Shown one piece after another: positions 17,259-63,852 of a stretch of DNA of 64,000 nt. How positions within the stretch are numbered: position 1 is the stretch's first letter; the number at the start of each line of letters is the position of its first letter. The notes under the pieces are model-generated. The model saw only the letters and a list, made by a program, of their open reading frames with translations, had not been told where the DNA came from and did not search any database. The DNA comes from Callorhinchus milii. Taxonomy: Eukaryota. The position numbers were made by a program, and so were the translations under genes. Location of the stretch: NCBI RefSeq assembly GCF_018977255.1, contig NW_024704742.1, forward strand, positions 132,558,001 through 132,622,000, in the 5' to 3' direction.

Positions 17259-18059
17259 CATAATAGTGAAACTTTTCATTTTGATGTAGTGAACTTGCTT
17301 TTCAAGTTCCAACCATGTATTAGAGTGTTCTTCAAGTGTTTATTGAACAAGGTGCCAACTCATTCCTAGCCTTAGGCAATATCCATTAATTGACTGGTTG
17401 ATTTGCACAAGGCTACGCAGCTAACCCATTCCGATATCTGACTGACCAGTGCCTTGGGACGTTCTCCCAACGTGAAAGGCGCTATACAAATAATATTTTA
17501 AAAATTTGTAACTTAATAATTTTCTTGAAAATAGTTATTTCTCCTAATTGGGGTTATATTATCACACTATCTCTCCATGCTATCTCCAAAACGCCCCTGG
17601 AAATGTTTGCACTCACTGTGTAAATTATGCTCCTGGGTCCATTTCTCCCCCCACTTCTCAGTTACCCTCCCCTCCCTCAGTCACCTGTGAGAACTGCCCT
17701 GAGATTTCATCCCAAAGTGAAAGGCATTTACTAATGTAAACTGCTACAGCAGTTTAACCTCTACAGAAGTCCAAAGTGTACAATATCAACTTGCATTTGT
17801 TCACATGGGGTAGCATCCCGGAGCACTTAGCGTAGTGTGGTAGTTTGAGCACTCGTCTCGCAAGTGTGAGGACCTGAGTTTGATTCCCGACTGGGGCAAA
17901 ACCTTAGGCAAGTTTCCACATGCCTCTGTTTACCTAGCAGTAAGTAGGAACCCTTCCTTCTTTCAAAGACCTTCCTATAAATACTGGAACTAAGTCAGAA
18001 GGAAATTGCCCTTTGTAGGATCCCTGACACAAAGAGGCAGGAGGCAGAGATGCACGACA

Positions 18060-18240
18060 TTGACAAGCTCAGTGTCCCAGTTTACGTTGGGTCGATTGAA
18101 GTCCCCATCAGTGCTACCTTATTTTTCTCACATAGATTAGCATACAGTCCGAAATGGACTCCTAATATTAGCATACAGTTCCGAGTCGTTCTCCCTGATT
18201 TGGCCAGGCGGTCGATAGCAAACCCCTTAGTCTAGCCTTT
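18060..18240 (-). mobile_element. CR1-type LINE endonuclease (APE) fragment
   Basis: Minus-strand translation gives GVCYRPPGQIRE and MGDFNRPNVNWDT, typical CR1 ORF2 endonuclease motifs. Confidence 0.75.
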
Positions 18241-18491
18241 TCCCTCGTTGAACACAACTAACCAGAAGATTTTGTACCATATGCTCCAAGCACCAACAAG
18301 CCACGCTTGAAGGGGGACTTGTAAGCATTGCAGATCAGACCCGTCAATGGAGTGAATGTCTCCCTAGGACAATAAACTGTATAGGATCTAATCCCCTTAT
18401 CTCCCCACTACCAGACAGCAGCTGTCTGTCGCTCACAGTGAAAAAAGGGGGGGACAGAAAACAGTAGCGAGTGCATCAATAGATATATATA

Positions 18492-18501
18492 TTTATTTAT
18501 T
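18492..18501 (-). terminator. Putative ENHO polyadenylation signal (two overlapping AATAAA)
   Basis: Plus-strand tttatttatt equals AATAAATAAA on the minus strand, followed by a U/GU-rich downstream element (ctgttttctgtcccccccttttttcactgtg). Implies a 3' UTR of about 1.85 kb. Confidence 0.5.
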
Positions 18502-19904
18502 TATATATAAATACTGTACTAGAAAAGAGATCAAAAGTGCAATTAAAGGTGGAGACAAGAGGCAGAAGGACAGCAAATTAACAGTGAATTATATAAGGTG
18601 ATCAAAGACAAGATTTTTCACCCCACCGCTCCACTAATTTGCTTTATACAAAGCTAAACAAACCCCCAGCAGGGTCTTGTGATCAGAGACATGTCAGGTC
18701 CCTGGTGTCACGCATTCTGGAAGCACATAGTCTGGAATCCGACAGCTGAACAGAGGGGAGAGGTGGGGGTGTGAGTCACTTTGTTACTGCACTTTTGATT
18801 TAATACTCTGGCATAAGGCATGTTGTAAATTACTTATTCGTCATATTCTGTGAAAACGATGTCTGAATCTTATTGCCATAGGTTGTTCATATATACAGTA
18901 TGTACACACACAAATACACTTTTTTTTAGATTGAAATAAAAACACCTTTTGACTGACTGGTCTCTTTAACAACAGCTCTCCTCCCATGTGGGTTTCTGTC
19001 CAGATTTCATTGCCTGACACCAATCGATCCCCTTTCTCCCCTCCTCCCTCTAGGCCCTGCCGGTAAAGCAAATCATCCCTCTAAAAGGGATTAATTCCCC
19101 ACTCGCTCAAATCCACAATTGCTTTCGCAAAGTGGCATAAAGTCTCTTGATGAAATGACTTGATCCTTTCAGTCGATGCTGCCTCTCTCTATCTCTCAGG
19201 GTTTGGGTGAAATTCCCACCTCATTCCAAGGGTCAGAGTCTGTCCCTTCTTACCCCCACCATCAAACTCCCTGTCCCTTCCTTACTACACACCCCCACCT
19301 CAAAGAAAACCCCCTTGCCGTTCATCTTAAATTTTTCCTCATTAAAAAAAAATGAGTCATTCAATTCACGACTGTTTGTGGGACAATGCTGTGCACAATT
19401 GGCTGTTGTGCCTTGGGATATCCTCCCGATGTGAAAGGCGCTACACAAATGTAATCTTGTTGTGTTTCACCCACAAAATACAGTCAACCCACTTTACAAT
19501 ATATTCTGTGAAGCGGCACTTTCAATGATGTGATAAGGCGCTATATCAAATGCAAGGATTATTATTATTATCTATCGACCCCTCTCCTCTGTCCTCTCCT
19601 ATTTTCCTCTCCCCTTCTCAACCTCAATCTGGTCATATTGGGCGGATTTCACACCCAATTGGGTGTTGTTATTTCTGTGTCAAAAAATACAGGTTGGGCA
19701 GGTACCTCATTTTTTAAAAATTAATTTAAACTGCAAAATGTGGATTTTTTTCCCTTTGAAATCCTTTCCTTATACAGTTTCAAAAAGCAGTAAAACCTAA
19801 ATTGGCTAGTCTGCTTACCCAATACATAATATTAGGCTAGTTGCGGGAGTTAGTATTTGGCTGACTTTGGGCTACAGAGTGTATTGTAATTTAACTCTAC
19901 TACA

Positions 19905-20232
19905 ATAGAGTCCCGCAAGTGAGAGGACCTGGGTTCGATTCCCAGGTGGGGCGAAACCTTAGGCAAGTTTCCTTACTCCACCCGCCTCTGTTTACTTAGA
20001 AATAAATAGGAACCGGTTGTTAGTCGATAGGCAGATCACTATTCGTGGGGGAAAATCCCTCAAAAAAAATTGTCACTCAATTCACAACTGTTTGTGGGAC
20101 ACTGCTGTGCGCAATTGGCTGCCGTGTTTTTCCCACAAAATACACAGTGAATCCACTTTACAATATATCAGGTGAAACGCTTTGAGACGTCTCAACCACG
20201 TGATAGGGCGCTTTATCAAAGCAAGGATTTAA
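19905..20232 (+). mobile_element. CORE-type SINE (antisense within predicted ENHO 3' UTR)
   Basis: gacctgggttcgattccc B-box, CORE-like segment and tail. Confidence 0.85.
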
Positions 20233-20338
20233 TATATATAATAGTAATCTTTGCATTTGATATATCTCTCTATAATATATATAGATAGAGATTATTTAAT
20301 ATCATTTCTGGCAAACCCTGACTTCCATATTCCCTGCA

Positions 20339-20530
20339 TCAGACCTTGAGCAAGCAATTTTCCTCGCCTTTGGTTCGTTTCTGCCCGTCCGCCAGGCTGG
20401 ACGCCTCCTGAGGGGTGGAGGGGGTCTTGCAAGCTTTGTACATCACAGCGAGGAGCAGAGCCATGAGCACTGACAACATGCAGTTCAGGACGATAGCGAC
20501 AATCGCTGCCGTGGACAAATCAGTGCTCAT
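20339..20530 (-). CDS. ENHO: Adropin (energy homeostasis associated) orthologue, 63 aa, whole CDS in one exon
   Basis: MSTDLSTAAIVAIVLNCMLSVLMALLLAVMYKACKTPSTPQEASSLADGQKRTKGEENCLLKV. Residues 1-34 align without gaps to recalled human adropin (MGAAISQGALIAIVCNGLVGFLLLLLWVILCWAC), and the C-terminus EENCLLKV resembles human EGSYLLQP. ATG has a purine at -3 and sits 31 nt after a strong acceptor. Syntenic with DNAI1 and RPP25L. Confidence 0.88.
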   Translation of the reverse strand: MSTDLSTAAIVAIVLNCMLSVLMALLLAVMYKACKTPSTPQEASSLADGQKRTKGEENCLLKV

Positions 20531-20561
20531 CCCTGCGAATCCACAGACAATTTCAGATATC

Positions 20562-20610
20562 CTTTGGAAGGAAAGAGAGGGAGGGAGGGAGAGAAAGAGA
20601 GAGAGAGAGA
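20562..20610 (-). other. Splice acceptor of the ENHO coding exon
   Basis: Minus strand reads a long (CT)-rich pyrimidine tract ...ttccttccaaag|gatatctg; the exon would start at 20561. Confidence 0.7.
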
Positions 20611-21264
20611 GGGGAGGGAAAGAGCAACCGAAAGGCGAAATGTGTCCAGTCTTTGTAGGAAGGCGTTTTTTCTTTATATGTATATATATATATATATAAA
20701 AAGTTTTCTTCTTTTCGCCCCCTCCTCTCCCGTCTCCCTCCACCCTCTCCTTTCCTCTTTTCCAGCAAGCTTTCCCCTGCCGCTTTGTCCAGCCAGCTCG
20801 GACCACACTATCTATACCCCTTTCGGGCTTTGGCTTGCAGGGTCAACAGGAGCTGGAAAGGTAACCAAGAAAGTCAGAGCAAAAAGTGGATCCACCAGAG
20901 AGGCAGAGGGGGAGATAGACCTTGAGACAAGTCCATTGGGTTCTCATTGCTGAGAGCAAAAAAACATGAAGCAATAAAACGACTTTCTCTCTTTTCTTTC
21001 TCTCTCTCTCTCACTCTATCTCTCTCTGACACACACACACACACACACTCACTAGATGTTCATCTCTCTTCCCCTCCTTGTTGCATTCAAGCCACGAGCA
21101 CAGATTTAAGTAGAGGATCAAATCCCAATGGGGTTGTTGTTGGTCCTTGGTCCAAAATTGGATGCAGAAAAGCAACAGCCCAGTATCAGCAGCAGAGAGA
21201 GAGAGAGTGGTTGAGTTCTTTCAATTCCTCCTCGATCCCTTCCCCTTCTCTGCACTGATCTCAC

Positions 21265-21426
21265 CAGACAATCTCGAAATAGTATCTATAAATACACACA
21301 GACACACAGACACAGTGTATATACAAATCCAGGGAAATCTCCAGATGTTCTCCCAGACTCCAAACAGAGTGAATGTCCAGCAGATCAGATCAGCCCACAA
21401 CCAGGTCACTGCAAGTCTTCTCCACC

Positions 21427-22100: not shown

Positions 22101-22231
22101 CCTGTTATTGACATCCTGCTGCAGAGAATTGACACAAGTATCTGACAGCTCATTTGTCACTGCGTCTGTTAATCACATTTTGCTGCAATTGCAATCTTTT
22201 TTTAATTAGAATCCCCCCCCCCGGCAATTGA

Positions 22232-22565
22232 TAATAATAATAATAATCCTTGCATTTGATATGGTGCCTTATCACATTTCCGAGACGTCTCAAAGCGCTT
22301 CACAGGATGTACCGTAAAGTGAATTGACTGTGGGCAAAACGCGGCAGCCAATTGCGCACAGCAGTGTCCCCACAAACAGTCGTGGATTGAAGTGACCAAA
22401 TTGTTATTGGTTTTTTTAAGGAATTATTATCCCTGGAAAAGCAATCAGCCCATCGACTAACAACCGGGTTCCTGCTTACTGCTAGGTCAACAGAAACGTG
22501 CGTAGTGAGGAAACTTGCCTAAGATTTCACCCAGGTCCTGTGGTTTGCACTAACCACTACGCTAT
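22232..22565 (-). mobile_element. CORE-type SINE
   Basis: Tail (TTA)n, body and degraded head. Confidence 0.8.
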
Positions 22566-23085: not shown

Positions 23086-25911
23086 TTTGAGTACTCTTAA
23101 GTGTGGCAATTGTTTTCCAAATATACTGTAAACAAGGTAGAAAATTTGCACAAAACAATCTCCCACAAACAGCTGTGAACTGAATCTGGACGATTGTTGG
23201 CCCAGAGACAAACCTGGTGACTCCCTTCTTCCTTTTTGGTATCTTAAATATGCACTTGAATGGGCAGATGGGATCTCGGTTTAATGGACCCTGCCTCTAT
23301 TTGGCAGGGCATTCCGCATCCCAACAACCCTCTCCAGCAAGGAATGGGAATAGAATGGTTAGCTGCAGTGGAGCAGGAGGAAGGACTTAAATAACCTGCT
23401 TCTGTGATTTCCATGGTTCTACACTCTCAACTCACAGGCTGTGCTGACCCTCCAATGGAAAGCTAAGGGTACACCGCATTGTTGGAAGTGTCGTTCTTAG
23501 GATCAGATATTAAACCAAGGCCCCGTCTGTTTGTTCAGGTGGACATTAAAGATCCCAAAAACTTCAAAAAGAGAAGGGAGTTTCTGCCAGTGCCCTGGCC
23601 AACAATCCCAAATATAATTGTTTTTTTCTGATAGCAGAGAGGAGAGTGCGGACAGGGAGCTAGGGACAGGGCAAGGGTTAAAAGTATCAGAATGTTGGCA
23701 ATAGTGGAGTAAAACCAATACAATACAAACAGAGCAGAGCATTCAAGTCATGATGCTAAATCTTCATTTCGCTGACTTTCATCTGTTCTTCATCAAGGAT
23801 TCTCCTTTGTATTGAAAAGGACGTTTGCTCAGTTTCTGTTCCCAGACACTTCATTCTTCATTGCCCAAGCCGAACACCTACAAACTTTGTTGCATTCACA
23901 CACTGTGACTTAAACAGTAAATTGTCTTGTCATGGGGACTTTGATGTTCGCCAGTACAGACAGCCTGGATGTTAGCTTAATGTCTTACCTAAAGCACAGT
24001 ATCGTGTCCCTGCATGTCCTTCATGCCCTCGGTTCCACCATTGGCGGCTGCACTTTCGGCCACTGTGACCTGAAAATCTTCCTCTATCGCTCCGCCTTGT
24101 CCCTCTTTCTCCATCTTCAGAGTGCACGTGAACACCTTCCTCTTCGACTGTGCTTACGGTCACCTCCCACCCGGCTCGGTGTCGTGCTCTGCCACAATCA
24201 ATCGCTCTGAGACGCTACCCTGCACGAGGGGCGCTATATAAATGCAAGTTGTTGTTGCATCTCTGGCAATGCAGTTCTCCCCTTAGGGCTGCGTTGGGGT
24301 GTGTTTTGCAGCTGTACGAATGATGCGGAAAGTGTGAACGAAGGGCTGTCGTGGTTTGCAGATGTTACAGATGTTCTTATTCACTTTGTGGGTTTGTGGG
24401 ATGCTCGCAGAGATTGAGATTTAATGAGCCATTGGTGCTTGAGGAGTTGCATGGGGACTCGAAGTACGAGATGCCCCTGCACGAGATGCACGGTGAATGG
24501 TGCCTTCTGTGCCGCCAGGGCTATTCCAAGCCTGACCAGCGCAGATCACTGGCTTCCAAAAAGCCATTTCTCGGATCACAGCTAATGTGCTCAGGCACTC
24601 AACCAGCTTCTCCACATGAGAGATCTGTTCTCAAATAAGGAAACTGTTTCCACTGGCGGGTGGGTCGGTAACCAGAGGAGACAGATTTAAGACAATTGAT
24701 TTAAGATAAAAGCAGGATGAGTCCCTCCAGGGAGAGAGTGCGCATTCCATTCCAGCAATCTATCTCTGAAATTTCCATGCGTAGGTGGGATGCATGGATT
24801 TGTCAGCTTGGTTTAGATAGTGCACATGTGTCAGACACCCGGCTGACCAAAAAAAACACCCAAAACAATTTGACTTCAGGAAACTCCGAAATGCAACTTG
24901 ATTGAATAAAATCGAGAAACAAAAGGAATTTGTTTAATAATACAGTAATGGGCTTTCTAAGGTTTAAATGTACTTTCCGCAAAATCCTGTTGAGAAAATA
25001 AATGATAGTTAAAATGGATTAAAAATAAAATTGGCAACTGTGCTACTTGCCCAGCTAGGGCCATGCTTTGGCTTGAATATAGGGTGTGGGGAAGTGAGCC
25101 TTTGTATCCAGTGGTAGAGATGGCTCCAATGGTCCATGACATGACTTCAAAATTGTAAGTTCTCAGCTGTTAGAGGGGCTGTGCTGTTGTTCACAGATTG
25201 GCTTCCACATTTGCTAGAAACACAGAGTCAATAGCCAGCTACAACAGCAATAGCAATAAACCTTGCATTTGATACAGTGGTGTGTGGCCATTTCTCCACA
25301 AAATACACAGTCATAGGAACATAAGAAATGCTGGACGATAAAAAGACCAAGGTCCATCTAGTTCACCTTCCAGGCGGTCGCATGCACATATTTCCTATGT
25401 ACTATATCCCATAATGTTATTTCTTAAAAGAAAGCTATTGAATTTGGGTTTGAAGGAATCAACATTTCCTGCTTCAACTGTCTTACTGAGGAGCCTGTTC
25501 CATAGGTTTACAATTCGCTTACTGAAATTGTTTTTCCACTATATATATGTAATATATATATATATTTAATGGGCATTTCTCTCACAAAATATACAGTCAA
25601 CCCGCTTTACAAAATATTCTGTGAAGTGCTTTGAGACGTCTGAATGATGTGATAAGGTGCTATATCAAATGCAAGGATTATTATTATATATAAAGTTACA
25701 ATCAGCCAAATAAATAAAAAAAACAAGGGCATTGAAAGATGCTGGGATGCAGAGTTTAAAAGGCCCTCCTGGCAGGGAGGAGGGGAGGCGGTTGGGGAAC
25801 TCATCTATATTAATGATGGATGTATATTCTCTTTTCTCCAATTCAATAACAAACAGCTAAAAATAATTTAAAATAAAACCTGCCTCTGATTCCAACATAT
25901 TACATATTTGT

Positions 25912-45383: not shown

Positions 45384-47337
45384 TTCCATCTGAAGAGTGG
45401 CACCTCTGACAAGGCAGTGATTCCCCAGCAGTGCATTGGATTGTTAGTCAGAGATCAAAGTCCTGACATGAGGCTTCAACCCACAACCTTCGGACTCGGA
45501 CAAAAGTTTTACCAATTTGCCAAACTATCATCAACTAGTAGAACAGGCTTTGTTGCCTTATGATAAATTTGCTTGGCATGATTATATTTTTTACAATGAC
45601 TAACGTTTTATTAGCTTTCTTCCGTTCCTCTGCTATACCTCATTCACTGTAATTCAGTATTTCCAAGTGCCGGAAATAAACCTTTTTGTCTCTGTGGATG
45701 TTAATTTACTGGGAGGTCTTCAACTCCTATAATGGAGAGTCAAAACGTAAATCTGAAAACTGCACGAGGACTCAGCCTTTATGAATTAATAATGTTTCCC
45801 AGATTCTCTCATTAATTCCATCCTGACAGATGAGAGGTCAGGCCTCGCATATTTAGATTGAGAATGAACATGTATCTCCTGCAAAGAAAAGCAACATTTA
45901 TTATTTTAGATTCCGACCTTGCCTTTCTCCTCGTCATAGTCACTTAGTTTGGGGTTTAAAAATAAACTGGTGGTGATGGACGGTGAGTCCAAAAGCACTT
46001 TGGTACGCTACCCTGCATGAGGGGCGCTATATAAATGCAAGTTGTTGTTTTTAAAAGAATACAGGACCCATGCACTACTTTTAAACTTCACAGGATGCCC
46101 TGTACAATGCAGTGACTTGTGCATTTTGTGGGCAAATGTGGTAGCCGCCAATTTGCACACAGCAATGTCCTACAAACAGTCATGAATTAATTTACCAGTT
46201 TTATTTGGGGGATTGTTGTCCAGGACACCGGGAGAAACTATTTTCTCTTTTCAAATCGTGCCACAGAATTTTTAATGTCACCTGACAGACAGCTGGGGCT
46301 TCAATTTAAGGTTTCATCCGAAGGACAGCATCTCTGACAATGGAGCACTCCCCCAGCTTTGTAGTGCTGTGTCAACCTAAACCATGAGCAAGAAGTCCCA
46401 ATGTGGGGCTTGGACTCATAACCTTCTGACTCAAAGTCTAGCTGAGATTCAGCTAAAAATAGGGAACTGAGTATTCTGCGAATAACAAAAAACTTGCATT
46501 TGATACATCGCCTTATCATATCGTCAAAATGACTCAAAGCACAGTTTTGCTTAATGTGTAGTGACTTTGTGTTCATAGTGAATGTGGCACTCAAGCACTG
46601 GCTCTGGATTGGGGAGGTTCATTTCCATTGCCAGTTTCTCATTGATGGAAAAATGCTGTATTTCTTAACAGATTGGATGCGATTACATGATCTGTTAAAA
46701 ACATTGCATTTCCCATCCAATACTTTGCAGTGAGTTATTTACAATAATGATGGTGACACTGAGCAGCCATTGTTATTAATAATAATAATTCTTACACTCG
46801 GCACAGCGCTTTCATGATGGGAGGAAGTCCCAAAGTGCTTCACGGGATATACTGTGAAGTGCTGTGATTGGATGTTTTGTGGATGAAGAGCAATGTGCTT
46901 CAAGACACCTCTAATGTATAATTCATCAGTCAAATGTACCTAAAGTCCATTTAATAAGGTAATTGTATCTCTTAAAGCATTGCAGTGGAGAGATAACAAA
47001 TGGAATAATTCATTATAGAAGATTTGCACTTTAAAATAATCAACTGATTTATACAAGTAAAGACATTTTGACATATTATTGATAATTTGCAGAAATCTAA
47101 CTTATAATGAAATGTGGCTCAAGAATTCAAGGAGGGAGACTGTGAATGCCTGATAAGATATTTCTTCTCAAAGGCTGTATAAATAGATCAGTCTAGGATG
47201 ACACACCAACGCAATAATGTAAGAAGTGCCATCGTTAAACTGAAGTCCCATCTGCCTGTTCAGGTGGATGTTCAAAATCTCATGTTACTATTTAACAAGA
47301 AAAATGGGTTTGTCGTGGTGTCCCCCCCCCCAGAGAT

Positions 47338-48775
47338 ACAACAACAAAAAATTACATTTATGTAGCAACTTTCAAGTCGGGAGGACGTCCCAAGGCGCCG
47401 GACAGTCAGAGTTTTGGACCCGAGCTGAGGGTCAGGATTGGGGAGGGCAGGGGTGGGTGCAGGGAATCGAAAGCAGAGGGGGGTCTTGAGATGGGTTTTG
47501 AAGGAGGCAAGGGAGGGAGCGAGGTGGAGGGACTGCAGGGTGAAGTTCCAGAGGGTGGGGGAAGAGTGGCAGAAGGCCCGCCTGCCAATGGTGGGGCGGG
47601 TGAGGCGGGGGACGTGAAGTAGGCTGGAGCCCGCTGAGCGATGGGAGCGGGCAGAATGGTAGGGAGTTAGGAGATCGTAGAGTTAGGGGGGGAGTAAGGC
47701 CATGGAGGGCTTTGAAAGTGAGGACCAGGATCTTGAACTGTATCCTCTGTGTGTTGGGAAGCCAGTGGTGTCGGGCGAGGATGGGGGAGATAGGGTCATG
47801 GAGCCTGGTGTGGGAGAGAACATGGGCTGCAGAGTTATGGATGATCTGCAGCCTGTGGAAGGAGGAGTTGGGGAGGTTGACAGGCAGGGAGTTTGAATAA
47901 TCAAGCCTCCTGTTATGAATGTGTGTATGAGGTTTTCGGCAGCCTGCGGTTTGAGACATTGGTGAAGCCGGACGATGTTGCGGAGGTGGGGGAAGGCAGA
48001 GCGGGCCATGGCACCAATGTGGGGTAGAAAGGATAGTTGAGGGTCAAACAAGATGCCAACGTTCCGGACTGGCTTAGCAAGTTGGAGTGTGCATGGATGG
48101 TGATGCTGTCAGCGCCTGAGGTGAGGAGGTGCTGACGGGAGCCAATAAAGAGAGCCTCGGTCATGTTGATGTTCAACTGAAGAAAGTTAGCTCGCATCAG
48201 GACTTGATGTCTGACAGACATTCTGTCAACACAGCAGTGGTCCTGGAGTGAAGGGTGGAGGCAGAGAGGTACAGTTGGGTGTGATCCGCATACATGTGGA
48301 AGTTGACCCCATGTCTGAGAATGATGTCACCGAGAGGGAGCATATAGATATTGAAGAGAAGGGAACCAAGGACAGAGCCCTGAGGAACGCCGCACAAGAT
48401 GGTGCGGGGCTAGAAGAGAAACCGTTTGAGGAGATGAAGTGGAGGCGGTGTGAGAGGTATGATGTGAACCAGTCAAGGACAGAGCCATGAACGTTGAGGT
48501 GAGAGGAGAGGTGGTGGATGAGGATAGAGGGGTTGATGGTGTCGAAGGCAGCAGATAGGTCAGGGAGGAGGAGGAGGCAGAGAGAGCCCTGGTCTTAGAT
48601 GGACAGAATATCATTTGTTACTTTGACCAGGACTGTTTCTGTGCTGTGGGCGGCATAGAAACCCGATTGGCGGGATTCACGAAGGGAGTGGTGGGAGAGA
48701 AAGGAGCGAAGCTGAGAAGCAGTAACTCATTCCAAGACCTTGGAGAGGAAGGGGAGGTTGGAGATGGGGCGGTAA
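47338..48775 (-). mobile_element. L2 (LINE2) retrotransposon, 5'-truncated, disrupted RT
   Basis: Minus-strand motifs [47 protein letters not shown]; frameshifted; 3' (TTG)n tail. Confidence 0.92.
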
Positions 48776-58382: not shown

Positions 58383-58875
58383 AACAACAACAACAACAAG
58401 ATTCCATTTATAAAGCGCCTTTCATGTCAGGAGGACGTCCCAAGGCGCTGCACAGTTGGGTCATGACCCGAGCAGGGGGGAAATGGTCAGGGTGAGGGGA
58501 GGGAGCGAGGAGGGAGGAAATGGTCAGGGTGAGGGGAGGGATGGGAGGGAGCGAGAAGGGGGAAGAGAGTCGAGAGGGGAGCTGAAGGCTCGGTCAAAGA
58601 GAAAGGTTTTGAGACCGGCCTTGAAGGAGGAAAGGGAGGAAGTAAGGCGAAGGCACTGGGGGATAGAGTTCCAGAGCCTCGGGGCTGAGAGGCTGAAGGC
58701 CCGACCACCGATGGTAGGGCGATTGGGGCGGGGGACGTGGAGCAGACCGGAGCCGGAGGAACGGAGGGTACGGGCAGGTAGGTAGGGGGATAGTAGGTTG
58801 GAGAGGTAGGAGGGAGCGAGGCCGTGAATGGCCTTGTAGGTGAGGATGAGGATCTTGAAATCAAGGATGAGGATC
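58383..58875 (-). mobile_element. L2 3' fragment, young subfamily
   Basis: [20 protein letters not shown]...APRLWNSIP and (TTG)n tail; near-identical to 60086-60563. Confidence 0.9.
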
Positions 58876-59390
58876 TTGTAAGCGGGACATTGTTGTAAAC
58901 ACTGTCTCTTGGTTGAAACATTAAACTGAAATCTGATCTGTCTGTTCAGGTGGATGTTAAAGATCTCTATTGACACTATTCAAAATGAGAACGGGTTTCT
59001 CCACACAGATCACCCCTGTGATCACTTAAGCACTCGATGGGACATATTCACAAGATTGGTTCACATGAAGGAAACTCTTTGGTCCATCTGACTCTGCGGC
59101 ACTATTTGAAGAGAAGGGAGTTTTATCAGTGTCATTGGCCAAATAATCCTCCAGATAAACAACAACTTGCACTTATATAGCCCCCTTCACGCAGGGTAGC
59201 GTCTCCGAGAGCTTAACAGCGGCGAAGCCTGACTCTGAGCCGGGGGGGGGGGGGACAGGGAGGTGGCCATGAGCACGGTCGAAGAGGAATGCCCATAAAA
59301 TTGGGCATCCACTTCATCAGTGTGTGTGGAACATTGCTGTGCGCAAATTGGCTGCCGTGTTTGTCCACAAGCAGGCCTCAGAGTAGATTT

Positions 59391-60563
59391 CCACAAACGG
59401 CTTTTCCTCCAGCCCCCGCACTGTCTCGTGCGGTGTCCCTCAGGGCTCTGTCCTCGGTCCCCTCTTCTTCACCCTCTATATGCTCCCCCTCGGTGACATC
59501 ATCCGCAGACATGGGGTTAACTTCCACATGTATGCGGATGACACCCAACTCTACCTTTCCCCCTCTACCCTCAAATCCACGACCACCGATGTCCTGACAG
59601 TCTGCCTGTCTGACATCGAGTCCTGGACGAGAGACAACTTTCTTCAGTTCAACGTGCGTAAAACTGAGGCCCTCCTGATTGGCTCACGTCAGCGCCTCCG
59701 CACCTCAGGCGCTGACAGCATCAGCATCCAAGGCTGCACTCTCCACCTCTCAAAGCCGTCAGGAACCTCGGGGTTCTGTTCGACCCTGAGCTGTCCTTTC
59801 TCCCTCATATCCACGCCACAACTGGCACCGCCTTCCATCACCTCCGAAATATCACCAGACTCCGGCACTACCTCACCCCTCACGCTGCTGAAACTCTGGT
59901 CCATGCCTTTATCATCTCAAGGCTGGACTATGGGAACTCTCTCCTCGCCGGCCTTCCCGGCACCTCCCTCCACACTGCAGGTCATTCAGAACTCTGCAGC
60001 TCATGTACTGTCCCGCACCAGGCTTCACGACCACATCACTCCCACCCTCGCTCGCCTCCACTGGCTCCCCATCCCCCAGAGGGTCGAATTCAAGATCCTC
60101 ACCCTCACCTACAAGGCCATTCACGGCCTTGCTCCCTCCTACCTCTCTGACCTACTATCCCCCTACCTACCCGCCCGTACCCTCCGTTCCTCTGGCTCCG
60201 GTCTGCTCCACGTCCCCCGCCCCAACCGCCCTACCATCGGTGTCTGGGTCTTCAGCCTCTCAGCCCCGAGGCTCTGGAACTCTATCCCCCAGTGCCTTCG
60301 CCGCCTCCTCCCTTTCCTCCTTCAAGGCCGGTCTCAAGATCCTTCTCTTTGACCGTGCCTTCAGCTCCCCTCTCGACTCTCTTCCCCCTTCTCGCTCCCT
60401 CCCATCCCTCCCCTCACCCTGACCATTTCCTCCCTCCTCGCTCCCTCCCCTCACCCTGACCATTTCCCCCCTGCTCAGGTCCTGACCCAACTGTACAGCG
60501 CCTTGGGACGTCCTCCGGACGTGAAAGGCGCTCTATAAATGGAATCTTGTTGTTGTTGTTGTT
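59391..60563 (+). mobile_element. L2 (LINE2) retrotransposon, 5'-truncated, young subfamily
   Basis: [38 protein letters not shown] with frameshifts; tail gggacgtcctccggacgtgaaaggcgctctataaatggaatc(ttg)n. Confidence 0.93.
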
Positions 60564-62350: not shown

Positions 62351-62914
62351 TCAGCTTCTGGCTTTCTTGGGTATTTCTCCCTTTCCCGATCCTGGCTGCT
62401 TACTGCCTTTCCCTGTCATGCCTCCTCCACCTCCTCCTCTCCTCTTCTTCCTTTGAACCTGCGCCTCCTCCTTTAGCGAATTAATCCACAGAGCGTCGAA
62501 GGACCCGGGCGCCTGGTAACCCGGCTCGCTCGGGTCCAGACTGTCTTTGGATAGCAAGACCCAGATGGCAGGGAGGTTTCTCTTCACGGTTAGACTGTCT
62601 AACCCTGCCTCGGTGGCGATGGGATCCCACAGCTCCTCGACCTGTTTGTAAGACAGCTTAGTGATCTGCTGGAGTCCCTTCAGCCTTCTCTTCATTATCT
62701 CCACACAGGTGATGGCTTTACTCACCGCTCTGCCAGTGCCGGTGAAAAGCATCACCCTGGTGTCGTCCGATTCCATTTTCCCAATGGCGTAGCCCATCAG
62801 GTTTCTGATTTTGCTGCCTTCTTTCACCTTCATTTCAATTATATCCTTCGGGAGGTTGGTGAATGGCAGTTCTGTTGGCAGTTCTGTGATTTTGGCTTTC
62901 TGGTAGTTTTCCAT
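62351..62914 (-). CDS. RPP25L: Ribonuclease P/MRP protein subunit p25-like (Alba-domain protein), 187 aa, single coding exon
   Basis: Motifs MKVKEGSKIRNLMGYA, FTGTGRAVSKAITCVEIMKRR and LLSKDSLDPSEPGYQAP are characteristic of RPP25/RPP25L. Acceptor ttcaaacag| at 62948/62947 lies upstream of the ATG. Synteny with ENHO/DNAI1 favours RPP25L over RPP25. Confidence 0.93.
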   Translation of the reverse strand: MENYQKAKITELPTELPFTNLPKDIIEMKVKEGSKIRNLMGYAIGKMESDDTRVMLFTGTGRAVSKAITCVEIMKRRLKGLQQITKLSYKQVEELWDPIATEAGLDSLTVKRNLPAIWVLLSKDSLDPSEPGYQAPGSFDALWINSLKEEAQVQRKKRRGGGGGGMTGKGSKQPGSGKGEIPKKARS

Positions 62915-63852
62915 TTCAAGAGCTTTTCACCGCTGGCTTCCGAGGCCCTGTTTGAATTCAATGAACAAATGTTTAAAGTATATCGTCTGGGAATGTAAAA
63001 GATACAACGCAACATATAGCACCCGTCACAAGGATAGTGTCACGGAGTCCTTAATAGTGCCAGAGCTTGACACCAAGCCGGGGAGAGGGGAGATGACAGT
63101 AGGCATGGTCAAAGAGGAAGGCCTACAAGTTTGATCTGAAGATGGGCAAAGAAATGGCAAGGCAGAGGGATTGAAGCAGAGAATTCCAAAGTTTAGGGCT
63201 TTCTTGTTGAAAGCACGGCCACCGATGGTGGAGCAGAGCGGAACGAGGGCTGTGCAGAAGGCCGGAGCCAGGTGAACTAAAAGGGCGGGTAGTAGAATGG
63301 GGTGTAAGTGGATCGGGGAGGTATGAAGGTGCCAGAGTATGAAGAGATGTTATGACAGGTCAAGACTTGATTTCCCACGATTCAATGCTAAATACAGTCG
63401 TGGCGTTACGAGTTAGATGATTTACATAGCATTTAGGATTATTTGGGGTCAAGAAACTGTTACGATTTAGCCGTTTATCTGATTTATAACAAACAAATGC
63501 AAATAAATCAAAGCATTTTTTGATAGGAAACCGAATGGGACTTGGGTGCATGTAAAGCGCTCTGAGACGCCGTCCGGCGTGGAGGGCGCTATATAAATCC
63601 AAGTTGTTGTTGTTGTTGTACGGCGAGTTCAATTTTAATGGCGAGGTCTCGTCTTCCTGTTCAGATGGACATAAAAGTTCCCATAGCACTATTCGAAAAG
63701 AGAAGGGAGTTTCTCTCTCCCGATGTCCTGGCCAACCAATCCCCCAAATAAAGTTGGTCATTCACTCCACGACTGTTTGCGGGACATTGCTGTGCTCAAC
63801 TGGATGCCGGGTTTCACACTTAAAACAGCCAATTCATTTTACGGTATGAAAC

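Follow-up and report, generated by a model that had tools for sequence, protein, structure and literature searches.

A 63-residue adropin-family protein with a conserved acidic dileucine tail and a predicted N-out/C-in orientation

The open reading frame at positions 20339-20530 on the minus strand of the window, by which is meant the whole stretch of 64,000 nucleotides that was analysed, is on the evidence of its sequence a genuine member of the adropin (ENHO) family. The features that its 63-aa product shares with the other non-mammalian adropins make it reasonably probable that these proteins are single-pass microproteins, with the N-terminus outside and the C-terminus in the cytosol (N-out/C-in), and that they carry a dileucine signal of the type recognised by AP adaptors. 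Since 2014 there has been debate over whether adropin is a secreted or a membrane-bound protein, and its receptor is unconfirmed. Both published models place residues 34-76 outside the cell, whereas the family alignment points to a tail inside the cell with a sorting signal. The parts of the coding region are as follows.

20339..20530, minus strand: adropin (ENHO) family ORF, 63 aa, a single uninterrupted coding stretch.
20510..20530, minus strand: N-terminal segment M1-T7, with no Lys or Arg and one Asp (D4), predicted to lie on the luminal or extracellular side.
20441..20509, minus strand: hydrophobic helix A8-M30, with a conserved face of A9, A12, I13, N16, L22 and L26, from the alignment and AlphaFold2.
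20417..20440, minus strand: juxtamembrane segment Y31-K32-A33-C34-K35-T-P37-S38, recognised by its conservation, with basic residues and the candidate palmitoylation site Cys34 (codon 20429-20431).
20366..20416, minus strand: variable linker T39-G55, predicted to be disordered (conservation 0.41; pLDDT below 50 for residues 40-55).
20348..20365, minus strand: acidic dileucine motif E56-E-N-C-L60-L61, ending two residues short of the stop; the family form is E-x-K-Y-L-L.

The residues on which the first-pass annotation had built its argument, namely D4, the hydrophobic stretch A8-M30, Y31-K32-A33-C34-K35 and the terminal E56-E-N-C-L60-L61-K-V, are all present in the product. The interval that it had given for the motif, 20339-20362, begins at E57 and so leaves the codon of E56 (20363-20365) one codon outside. 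No in-frame ATG lies upstream of the ORF within its open frame. A chance ORF was also considered as a reading of 20339-20530 and was rejected.

Membership of the family becomes visible with sensitive searches. No Pfam family model matches the ORF product, and a word-based search with the 63-aa protein as the sole query gave the self-match only. An exhaustive phmmer search with the same protein returned 15 relatives with E values of 6e-7 to 6e-4, including P0006 (E 9e-6), in whose cluster 24 of 27 members (birds) are called adropin. Named adropins were matched at E 1e-28 to 1e-23 by a profile that includes the 63-aa protein; the profile search gave 210 proteins, and the 120 listed are from teleosts, birds, lizards, snakes and a turtle, many of them without a name. 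A third search, directed at mammals, amphibians and sharks, found 27 proteins with no named mammal among them, together with five further sauropsid-type proteins and one unrelated match (P0164, E 0.86), and no named mammalian sequence occurs among the matches listed in any of the homology searches. The family profile matched none of the solved structures searched (best E 0.14). Over its whole length the protein is about 32-49% identical to 87 of 88 aligned relatives and 26% identical to the remaining one, and the alignment places the core S6..AI..N16..L22..L26..A33-C34 in it at fixed spacing. In a quick tree, in which most forks are unresolved, it forms the longest branch of the family; this branch lies outside the teleost group and would suit a vertebrate that is neither teleost nor amniote. 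With the known adropins (human, 76 aa; bird, reptile and teleost) it shares the helix, A33-C34, the ExxxLL tail and the single coding stretch, but it is 63 aa long and has N-C in place of the K-Y found inside the family motif. The nearest language-model look-alikes are TMEM52, SMIM36, stannin, SMIM3 and SMAGP/glycophorin C, which resemble it in having a short N-terminus, one helix and a short tail; their scores of 0.84-0.89, being below 0.9, make them leads only, with no sequence homology shown.

The family counts given below refer to 131 non-mammalian clusters at 90% identity, drawn among the matches listed and including the 63-aa protein; 32 redundant cluster members and the unrelated P0164 were left out. 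By rough sequence signatures the clusters comprise 80 of teleost type A, 24 of teleost type B and 25 of sauropsid type, together with P0004 and the 63-aa protein. Since the clusters are related to one another the counts are not independent, and amount to about five lineages plus human rather than 131 trials. The start was taken as the farthest Met within 15 residues because many records bear extensions from ORF calling. Motif positions were tallied in 126 tails anchored on K/R-A-C, which places P0160 and P0163 outside, and a match starting with E was preferred, which leans the tally slightly towards the motif; the count of Cys34 over the 131 clusters was made without this anchor. Conservation scores are weighted values over 89 aligned sequences. 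Human adropin, the sole mammalian sequence in the comparison, was compared by eye from its printed form. At least two adropin types occur in teleosts (P0083/P0116/P0149 and P0049/P0069/P0137), both of them in Esox, Astyanax and Electrophorus; one of the two is a supported clade in the quick tree, and they are probably paralogues from genome duplication.

At the locus itself, the ORF is covered by contigs of four public runs from one organism, and they show a single amino-acid variant, A47T in the linker (runs X2 and X3). Two further features were recognised in the window.

17926..21421, minus strand (from the ORF): candidate transcript with a leader of about 0.9 kb and a trailer of about 2.4 kb, its approximate span taken from the contig depth of run X1.
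62351..62926, minus strand: RPP25/RPP25L-like gene (Pfam Alba, E 6e-15; PDB RNase P p25, E 1e-33).

The depth in run X1 is 91-225 over 17926-21421 as against about 3.6 at 23634-24434, with no clear contrast in the other runs, and because the RNA status of run X1 is a guess its support for a transcript is weak. The leader (20531-21421, minus strand) is rich in microsatellites and contains five upstream ATGs, one of which opens a 34-codon frame at 20843-20947 that is in phase with the main ORF and stops before it. A pyrimidine tract and an AG immediately before the ATG resemble a splice acceptor; the contigs of the four runs are unspliced here, and none of the 15 joints listed matches. The leader could reflect translational control or a retained intron. 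The RPP25/RPP25L-like gene, which is intronless and has a Gly/Lys/Arg-rich C-terminal extension, is the sole protein gene besides adropin that was recognised in the window and lies on the same strand, 42 kb from the adropin ORF. Its presence fits the human neighbourhood, where the order is DNAI1-ENHO-CNTFR-RPP25L, with CNTFR between ENHO and RPP25L. No exons of DNAI1 or CNTFR were recognised by Pfam or motifs among the 199 of 439 repeat-free frames scanned, the CNTFR interval 20600-62300 included, which is a weak test. Multi-copy DNA occupies about 28.6 of the 64 kb (for instance 47300-48600, 58400-60460, 19840-20230 and 22230-22560), and among the repeats are decayed LINE-like fragments of reverse transcriptase and a short interspersed repeat with a terminal (TTA)n.

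What, then, is the hydrophobic segment of adropin: a signal peptide that is removed or an anchor that is kept? In the 63-aa protein A8-M30 is a run of 23 uncharged residues with a mean Kyte-Doolittle value of 2.67, and a 23-residue run from position 8 is uncharged in 130 of the 131 clusters. AlphaFold2 gives a single helix over residues 7-34 that is continuous through 33/34, with a pLDDT of about 95 for residues 11-30, and the spacing from N16 to C34 is fixed in 129 of the clusters. The alignment shows no variation at S6, N16, L22, L26 and A33 and next to none at A9, A12 and I13. Conservation is 0.76 for residues 5-33, 0.88 for 34-38, 0.41 for 39-55 and 0.84 for 56-61, such that conservation is higher in the supposed signal peptide than in the middle part of the supposed hormone. 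A face of polar and small residues lies in the N-terminal half of the helix (20483-20515, minus strand); it is made up of the invariant Asn16 with S6, A9, A12 and I13, and its composition suggests oligomerisation or a membrane partner.

Cleavable signal peptides possess a positively charged n-region, a short h-region, a polar c-region and small residues at -3 and -1. In adropin the net charge of the N-flank is zero or negative in 127 of the 131 clusters, the residues at -4 to -6 of the proposed 33/34 cut are hydrophobic, and position -3 is Tyr in 95 clusters, the 63-aa protein among them, and Cys in the other 36. The combination of Tyr at -3 with hydrophobic residues up to -4 disfavours a signal-peptidase cut at 33/34 in most members; the 36 clusters with Cys at -3, and human adropin with them, do accord with the cut rule. 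Neither the 63-aa protein nor most of the family thus has the make-up of a cleavable signal peptide, and what is found instead is that of a type III signal anchor, whose one long hydrophobic helix lies close to the N-terminus, with no separate signal peptide. The helix is very probably retained as an anchor.

The textbook account, in which residues 1-33 are a signal peptide, the protein from residue 34 to the end is secreted and the C-terminal hexapeptide is a receptor epitope, has to be weighed at this point. Invariance of Ala33 accords with it, as does Cys at -3 where this occurs, and many peptide hormones conserve just a short C-terminal core. Its experimental basis is mammalian: reviews describe secretion from HEK293 cells and in the mouse, adropin immunoreactivity of blood and a synthetic 34-76 peptide that is active (PMC10828274, PMC9369016), immunogold label is reported in islet secretory granules (PMC11432804), and secreted and/or C-out views are repeated elsewhere (PMC7036858, PMC11674490, PMC11790448, PMC12274323, PMC12733331). 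Yet the account would make a signal peptide of the best-conserved long segment of the protein, 23 residues without a positive n-region and mostly with Tyr at -3. There is no conserved KR/RR processing site, with KR or RR in 9 of 124 tails and any dibasic pair in 47 of 124, the C-terminus is variable, and the pairing with GPR19 was not reproduced, a systematic screen being reported in which adropin did not activate this receptor (PMC6838683).

The cysteines bear on the same account. Of 124 full-length tails, 82 have no Cys other than Cys34 from this residue on, so the internal disulfide that the first-pass annotation attributes to the secreted model cannot be general; the pair of Cys residues that a disulfide-bonded 34-76 hormone calls for is no general feature of the family. 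Where a second tail Cys is present it lies at +5 or, in the 63-aa protein, at 59. The first-pass annotation is to be corrected in that the tail of the 63-aa protein does hold this second Cys, C59, although it occupies the position of a Tyr in 119 of 126 anchored tails and not that of human C56. A C34-C59 disulfide common to the family was rejected. Taken together with the features of the helix, these observations make the textbook account quite improbable. Cys34 is flanked by K/R32 and K/R/Q35, with a further Cys at 31 in 36 of the 131 clusters, and this context makes it a candidate juxtamembrane palmitoylation site.

The orientation of the anchor is addressed by the residues on either side of it. 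Cys34 is kept in 130 of the 131 clusters, as had been anticipated from the single sequence, the exception being a Phe in P0160, and both K/R32 and A33 are found in all 131. There are more Lys and Arg residues in the 15 positions after the helix than before it in every cluster; the charge difference, with the N-terminal amine counted, is positive in 123, zero in seven and -1 in one, with a median of +2. Under the positive-inside rule the basic flank of a membrane helix faces the cytosol, and the bias after the helix in 131 of 131 clusters therefore predicts N-out/C-in. This type III orientation is likely for the 63-aa protein and the other non-mammals, with the cytosolic position of the tail predicted from the charge bias only. 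Sauropsid-type adropins begin with M-G-x-x-x-S in 21 of 25 cases (P0006, P0012 and P0115 belong to this type), as does human adropin; the 63-aa protein and the teleost adropins lack this start. M-G-x-x-x-S is an N-myristoylation pattern, and a possible N-myristoylation in amniotes would complicate an N-terminus that lies outside.

The argument from basic residues thus stands for all 131 non-mammalian clusters but not for human adropin. The human juxtamembrane segment is printed as C31-W-A-C34-H-S-R followed by two Asp, such that a single Arg and two Asp are found among the 15 residues that follow L30 and the charge difference is about -2, below that of every one of the 131 clusters; the more positive C-flank, seen by count of Lys and Arg in all 131, is by eye not shared by human. 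W32, H35 and R37 stand where nearly all of the clusters have K/R32, K/R/Q35 and P37. As far as the one human sequence tells, it is the mammalian form that stands apart from the family, and it does so just where the orientation and the proposed cut are determined. With two juxtamembrane basic residues lost the human orientation is less certain, and for mammals the balance tips only slightly towards N-out/C-in.

These charges probably explain the published prediction, in which human residues 1-9 are cytoplasmic and 30-76 extracellular (PMC9369016, PMC11335353, PMC11790448). Membrane-bound adropin is attributed by reviews to Wong 2014 (PMC9369016, PMC11335353), staining of the plasma membrane is reported (PMC9369016), and membrane residence is also remarked upon in PMC10828274. 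Endogenous adropin of mouse brain is described as requiring detergent for its extraction and as running at about 17 kDa, compared with 14 kDa for synthetic 34-76; adropin is also reported to bind NB-3/contactin-6, a membrane-tethered surface ligand (PMC8633041). In proposing an N-out/C-in membrane protein the first-pass annotation was in line with the charge bias and the motif, while the membrane-bound state had already been published with the opposite predicted orientation. That opposite orientation, a type II anchor (N-in/C-out) in all vertebrates whose extracellular tail binds NB-3/contactin-6 as in the Wong 2014 model, has the published prediction, the membrane staining and the NB-3 interaction on its side; it is nonetheless very unlikely, given that the orientation is a prediction from the mammalian sequence according to the review (PMC9369016) and that the charge bias is the reverse in 131 of 131 non-mammalian clusters.

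A division between lineages has to be taken more seriously. Fish and sauropsid adropins would be N-out/C-in, and those of mammals, with K32 and K35 lost, partly or wholly N-in/C-out, the tail being exposed or shed as a ligand; this departs from the preferred reading for mammals only and would reconcile both literatures. The human charge difference near -2 against a median of +2 elsewhere speaks for it, as do the mammalian linker, which is 13-15 residues longer and contains C56, and the fact that all of the secretion data cited are mammalian. Set against these are the human E, Y, L, L, Q and P, which are as in birds, so that a tail turned to the other side would have had to retain this motif for a different function, and the human uncharged segment of about 27 residues, a longer uncharged segment favouring N-out insertion; moreover, one mammalian sequence lies behind the comparison. 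The division, in the sense of mammals being mainly C-out, is a possibility held with clearly less than even confidence.

To return to the N-out/C-in reading, its second support is the end of the tail. The strict pattern [DE]xxxL[LI] is present in 106 of the 131 clusters and a relaxed form, with M/I/V variants, in 119, so that the conservation proposed for ExxxLL is upheld in teleosts, sauropsids, P0004 and the 63-aa protein; by group the strict motif occurs in 62 of 80 teleost A, 20 of 24 teleost B and 22 of 25 sauropsid-type clusters, and in the remaining two. In shuffled tails it arises at a mean of 2.0% across the family, and when the tail of the 63-aa protein itself is shuffled 2000 times it arises at 2.85%, or at 0.4% within four residues of the end. 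Among the 12 clusters without the relaxed motif, Glu is lost in seven, the second Leu is lost in two, and the tail is of another kind in three. These three, P0005, P0007 and P0162, lack the normal tail after the linker, which may be due to a frameshift, a splice variant or prediction error. The set that the first-pass annotation took to be conserved, namely the transmembrane segment, Cys34 and ExxxLL, is therefore real but too narrow, as S6/A9/A12/I13/N16, P37-S38 and the Lys and Tyr of the motif belong to it as well; its range, given as the jawed vertebrates, is covered for teleosts, sauropsids and the 63-aa protein by a sample with no named amphibian, shark or marsupial.

The surroundings of the motif are those of a dileucine signal, which sits in an unstructured tail at a distance from the membrane. 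AlphaFold2 gives no secondary structure after residue 34, and from Cys34 to the first Leu there are 21-31 residues, with 26 in 68 of 126 tails. The LL is followed by two residues in 45 tails, three in 71, one in a single tail and five or more in nine, a variation easier to square with a motif inside the tail than with the fixed end of a peptide. As alternative tail signals, GGA-type DxxLL (0 of 124 tails) and YxxPhi (3 of 124) were rejected.

The motif is, however, richer than a plain AP signal requires: in the 126 anchored tails E is found in 121, K/R in 124, Y in 119, L/M/I in 124 and L in 123, so Lys/Arg and Tyr are as conserved as Glu. This raises the alternative that the tail is cytosolic but that E-x-K-Y-L-L serves ER export, polarity, a degron or contact with a partner rather than AP binding. 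The seven Glu-less clusters that retain the Y/H-hydrophobic core, and a published localisation at the plasma membrane, are also in its favour. On the other hand the most divergent member, the 63-aa protein, retains E and LL at the exact spacing although N-C has replaced K-Y, and in human adropin the Lys is Ser while E, Y and LL are kept across a remodelled, longer linker. The common denominator is thus E-x-x-x-L-L, the pattern bound by adaptors, and with the near absence of the other two tail signals this makes a non-AP role unlikely. The human comparison rests on the printed sequence, with C34, C56 and the end E69-G-S-Y-L73-L74-Q-P (PMC9369016, PMC11335353). It agrees with the human features that the first-pass annotation had given, including the difference of 13 residues in length from the 63-aa protein.

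Known cargo offers a comparison. In mucolipin-1 the C-terminal E573EHSLL directs AP-2-dependent uptake that is promoted by palmitoylation at Cys565-567 (PMC5297682). The likeness is one of working only and consists in a membrane protein that bears EExxLL close to its C-terminal end, with Cys residues ahead of the motif; mucolipin-1 is an unrelated multi-pass channel with its Cys residues some 6-8 residues before the motif, whereas Cys34 lies at the membrane edge, 22 residues before E56. LIMP-2 (DERAPLI) and other AP-1/2/3 cargo with [DE]xxxL[LI] share the consensus and the short C-terminal tail, and for these the cytosolic position and adaptor binding have been demonstrated, where for adropin both are inferred. 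Given the N-out/C-in orientation, it is fairly probable, by analogy with mucolipin-1, that the motif would be an AP-type sorting signal and that Cys34 would be palmitoylated.

The proposed course of events is then as follows. The one long conserved helix would remain uncut in the membrane, inserted with the short N-terminus outside and the basic C-terminal tail in the cytosol, where Cys34 would be palmitoylated. The E-x-x-x-L-L of the tail would be captured by clathrin adaptors, AP-2 at the surface and AP-1/AP-3 inside, so that the protein would move in cycles from the plasma membrane to endosomes or lysosome-related vesicles and back. With just seven residues outside, the helix face around Asn16 might, speculatively, be the working surface; its residues S6, A9, A12, I13 and N16 would then bind a partner membrane protein and carry or regulate it en route, and the Lys and Tyr of the motif might provide a second layer, as a ubiquitin or phosphate switch or for a second binder. 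In its strong form the proposal extends to all vertebrates including mammals: there would be no peptide hormone, the helix face would hold a partner and the palmitoylated dileucine tail would drive endosomal passage. That human adropin ends in E..YLLQP as in birds, after a rebuilt linker, is simplest to understand if the tail has kept its side and its partner. This strong form is put forward tentatively, at somewhat less than even confidence.

What appears to be new here is the orientation together with the sorting signal, the gene, the type of signal and membrane residence being known. No earlier proposal of a dileucine signal or a cytosolic tail for adropin was found in the literature covered, key primary papers lying outside that scope, and evidence relevant to the sorting signal may already exist in proteomic data sets such as palmitoylomes and lists of lysosomal or interacting proteins. 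The assignment of such a signal to adropin, reversing the published orientation, appears strong for fish and sauropsids and less certain for mammals, and the published topology prediction should be treated with caution as it rests on the mammalian sequence, the odd one out of the family. The matter is of consequence to a large clinical literature in which plasma adropin is measured and animals are dosed with synthetic 34-76. If the N-out/C-in reading is true, the supposed hormone segment would be on the wrong side of the membrane. If the strong form is true, what is measured in plasma as 'adropin' would be protein that is carried in vesicles or has leaked, or else a cross-reaction of the antibodies, and the lack of a receptor would be explained by a clathrin adaptor being what adropin naturally binds.
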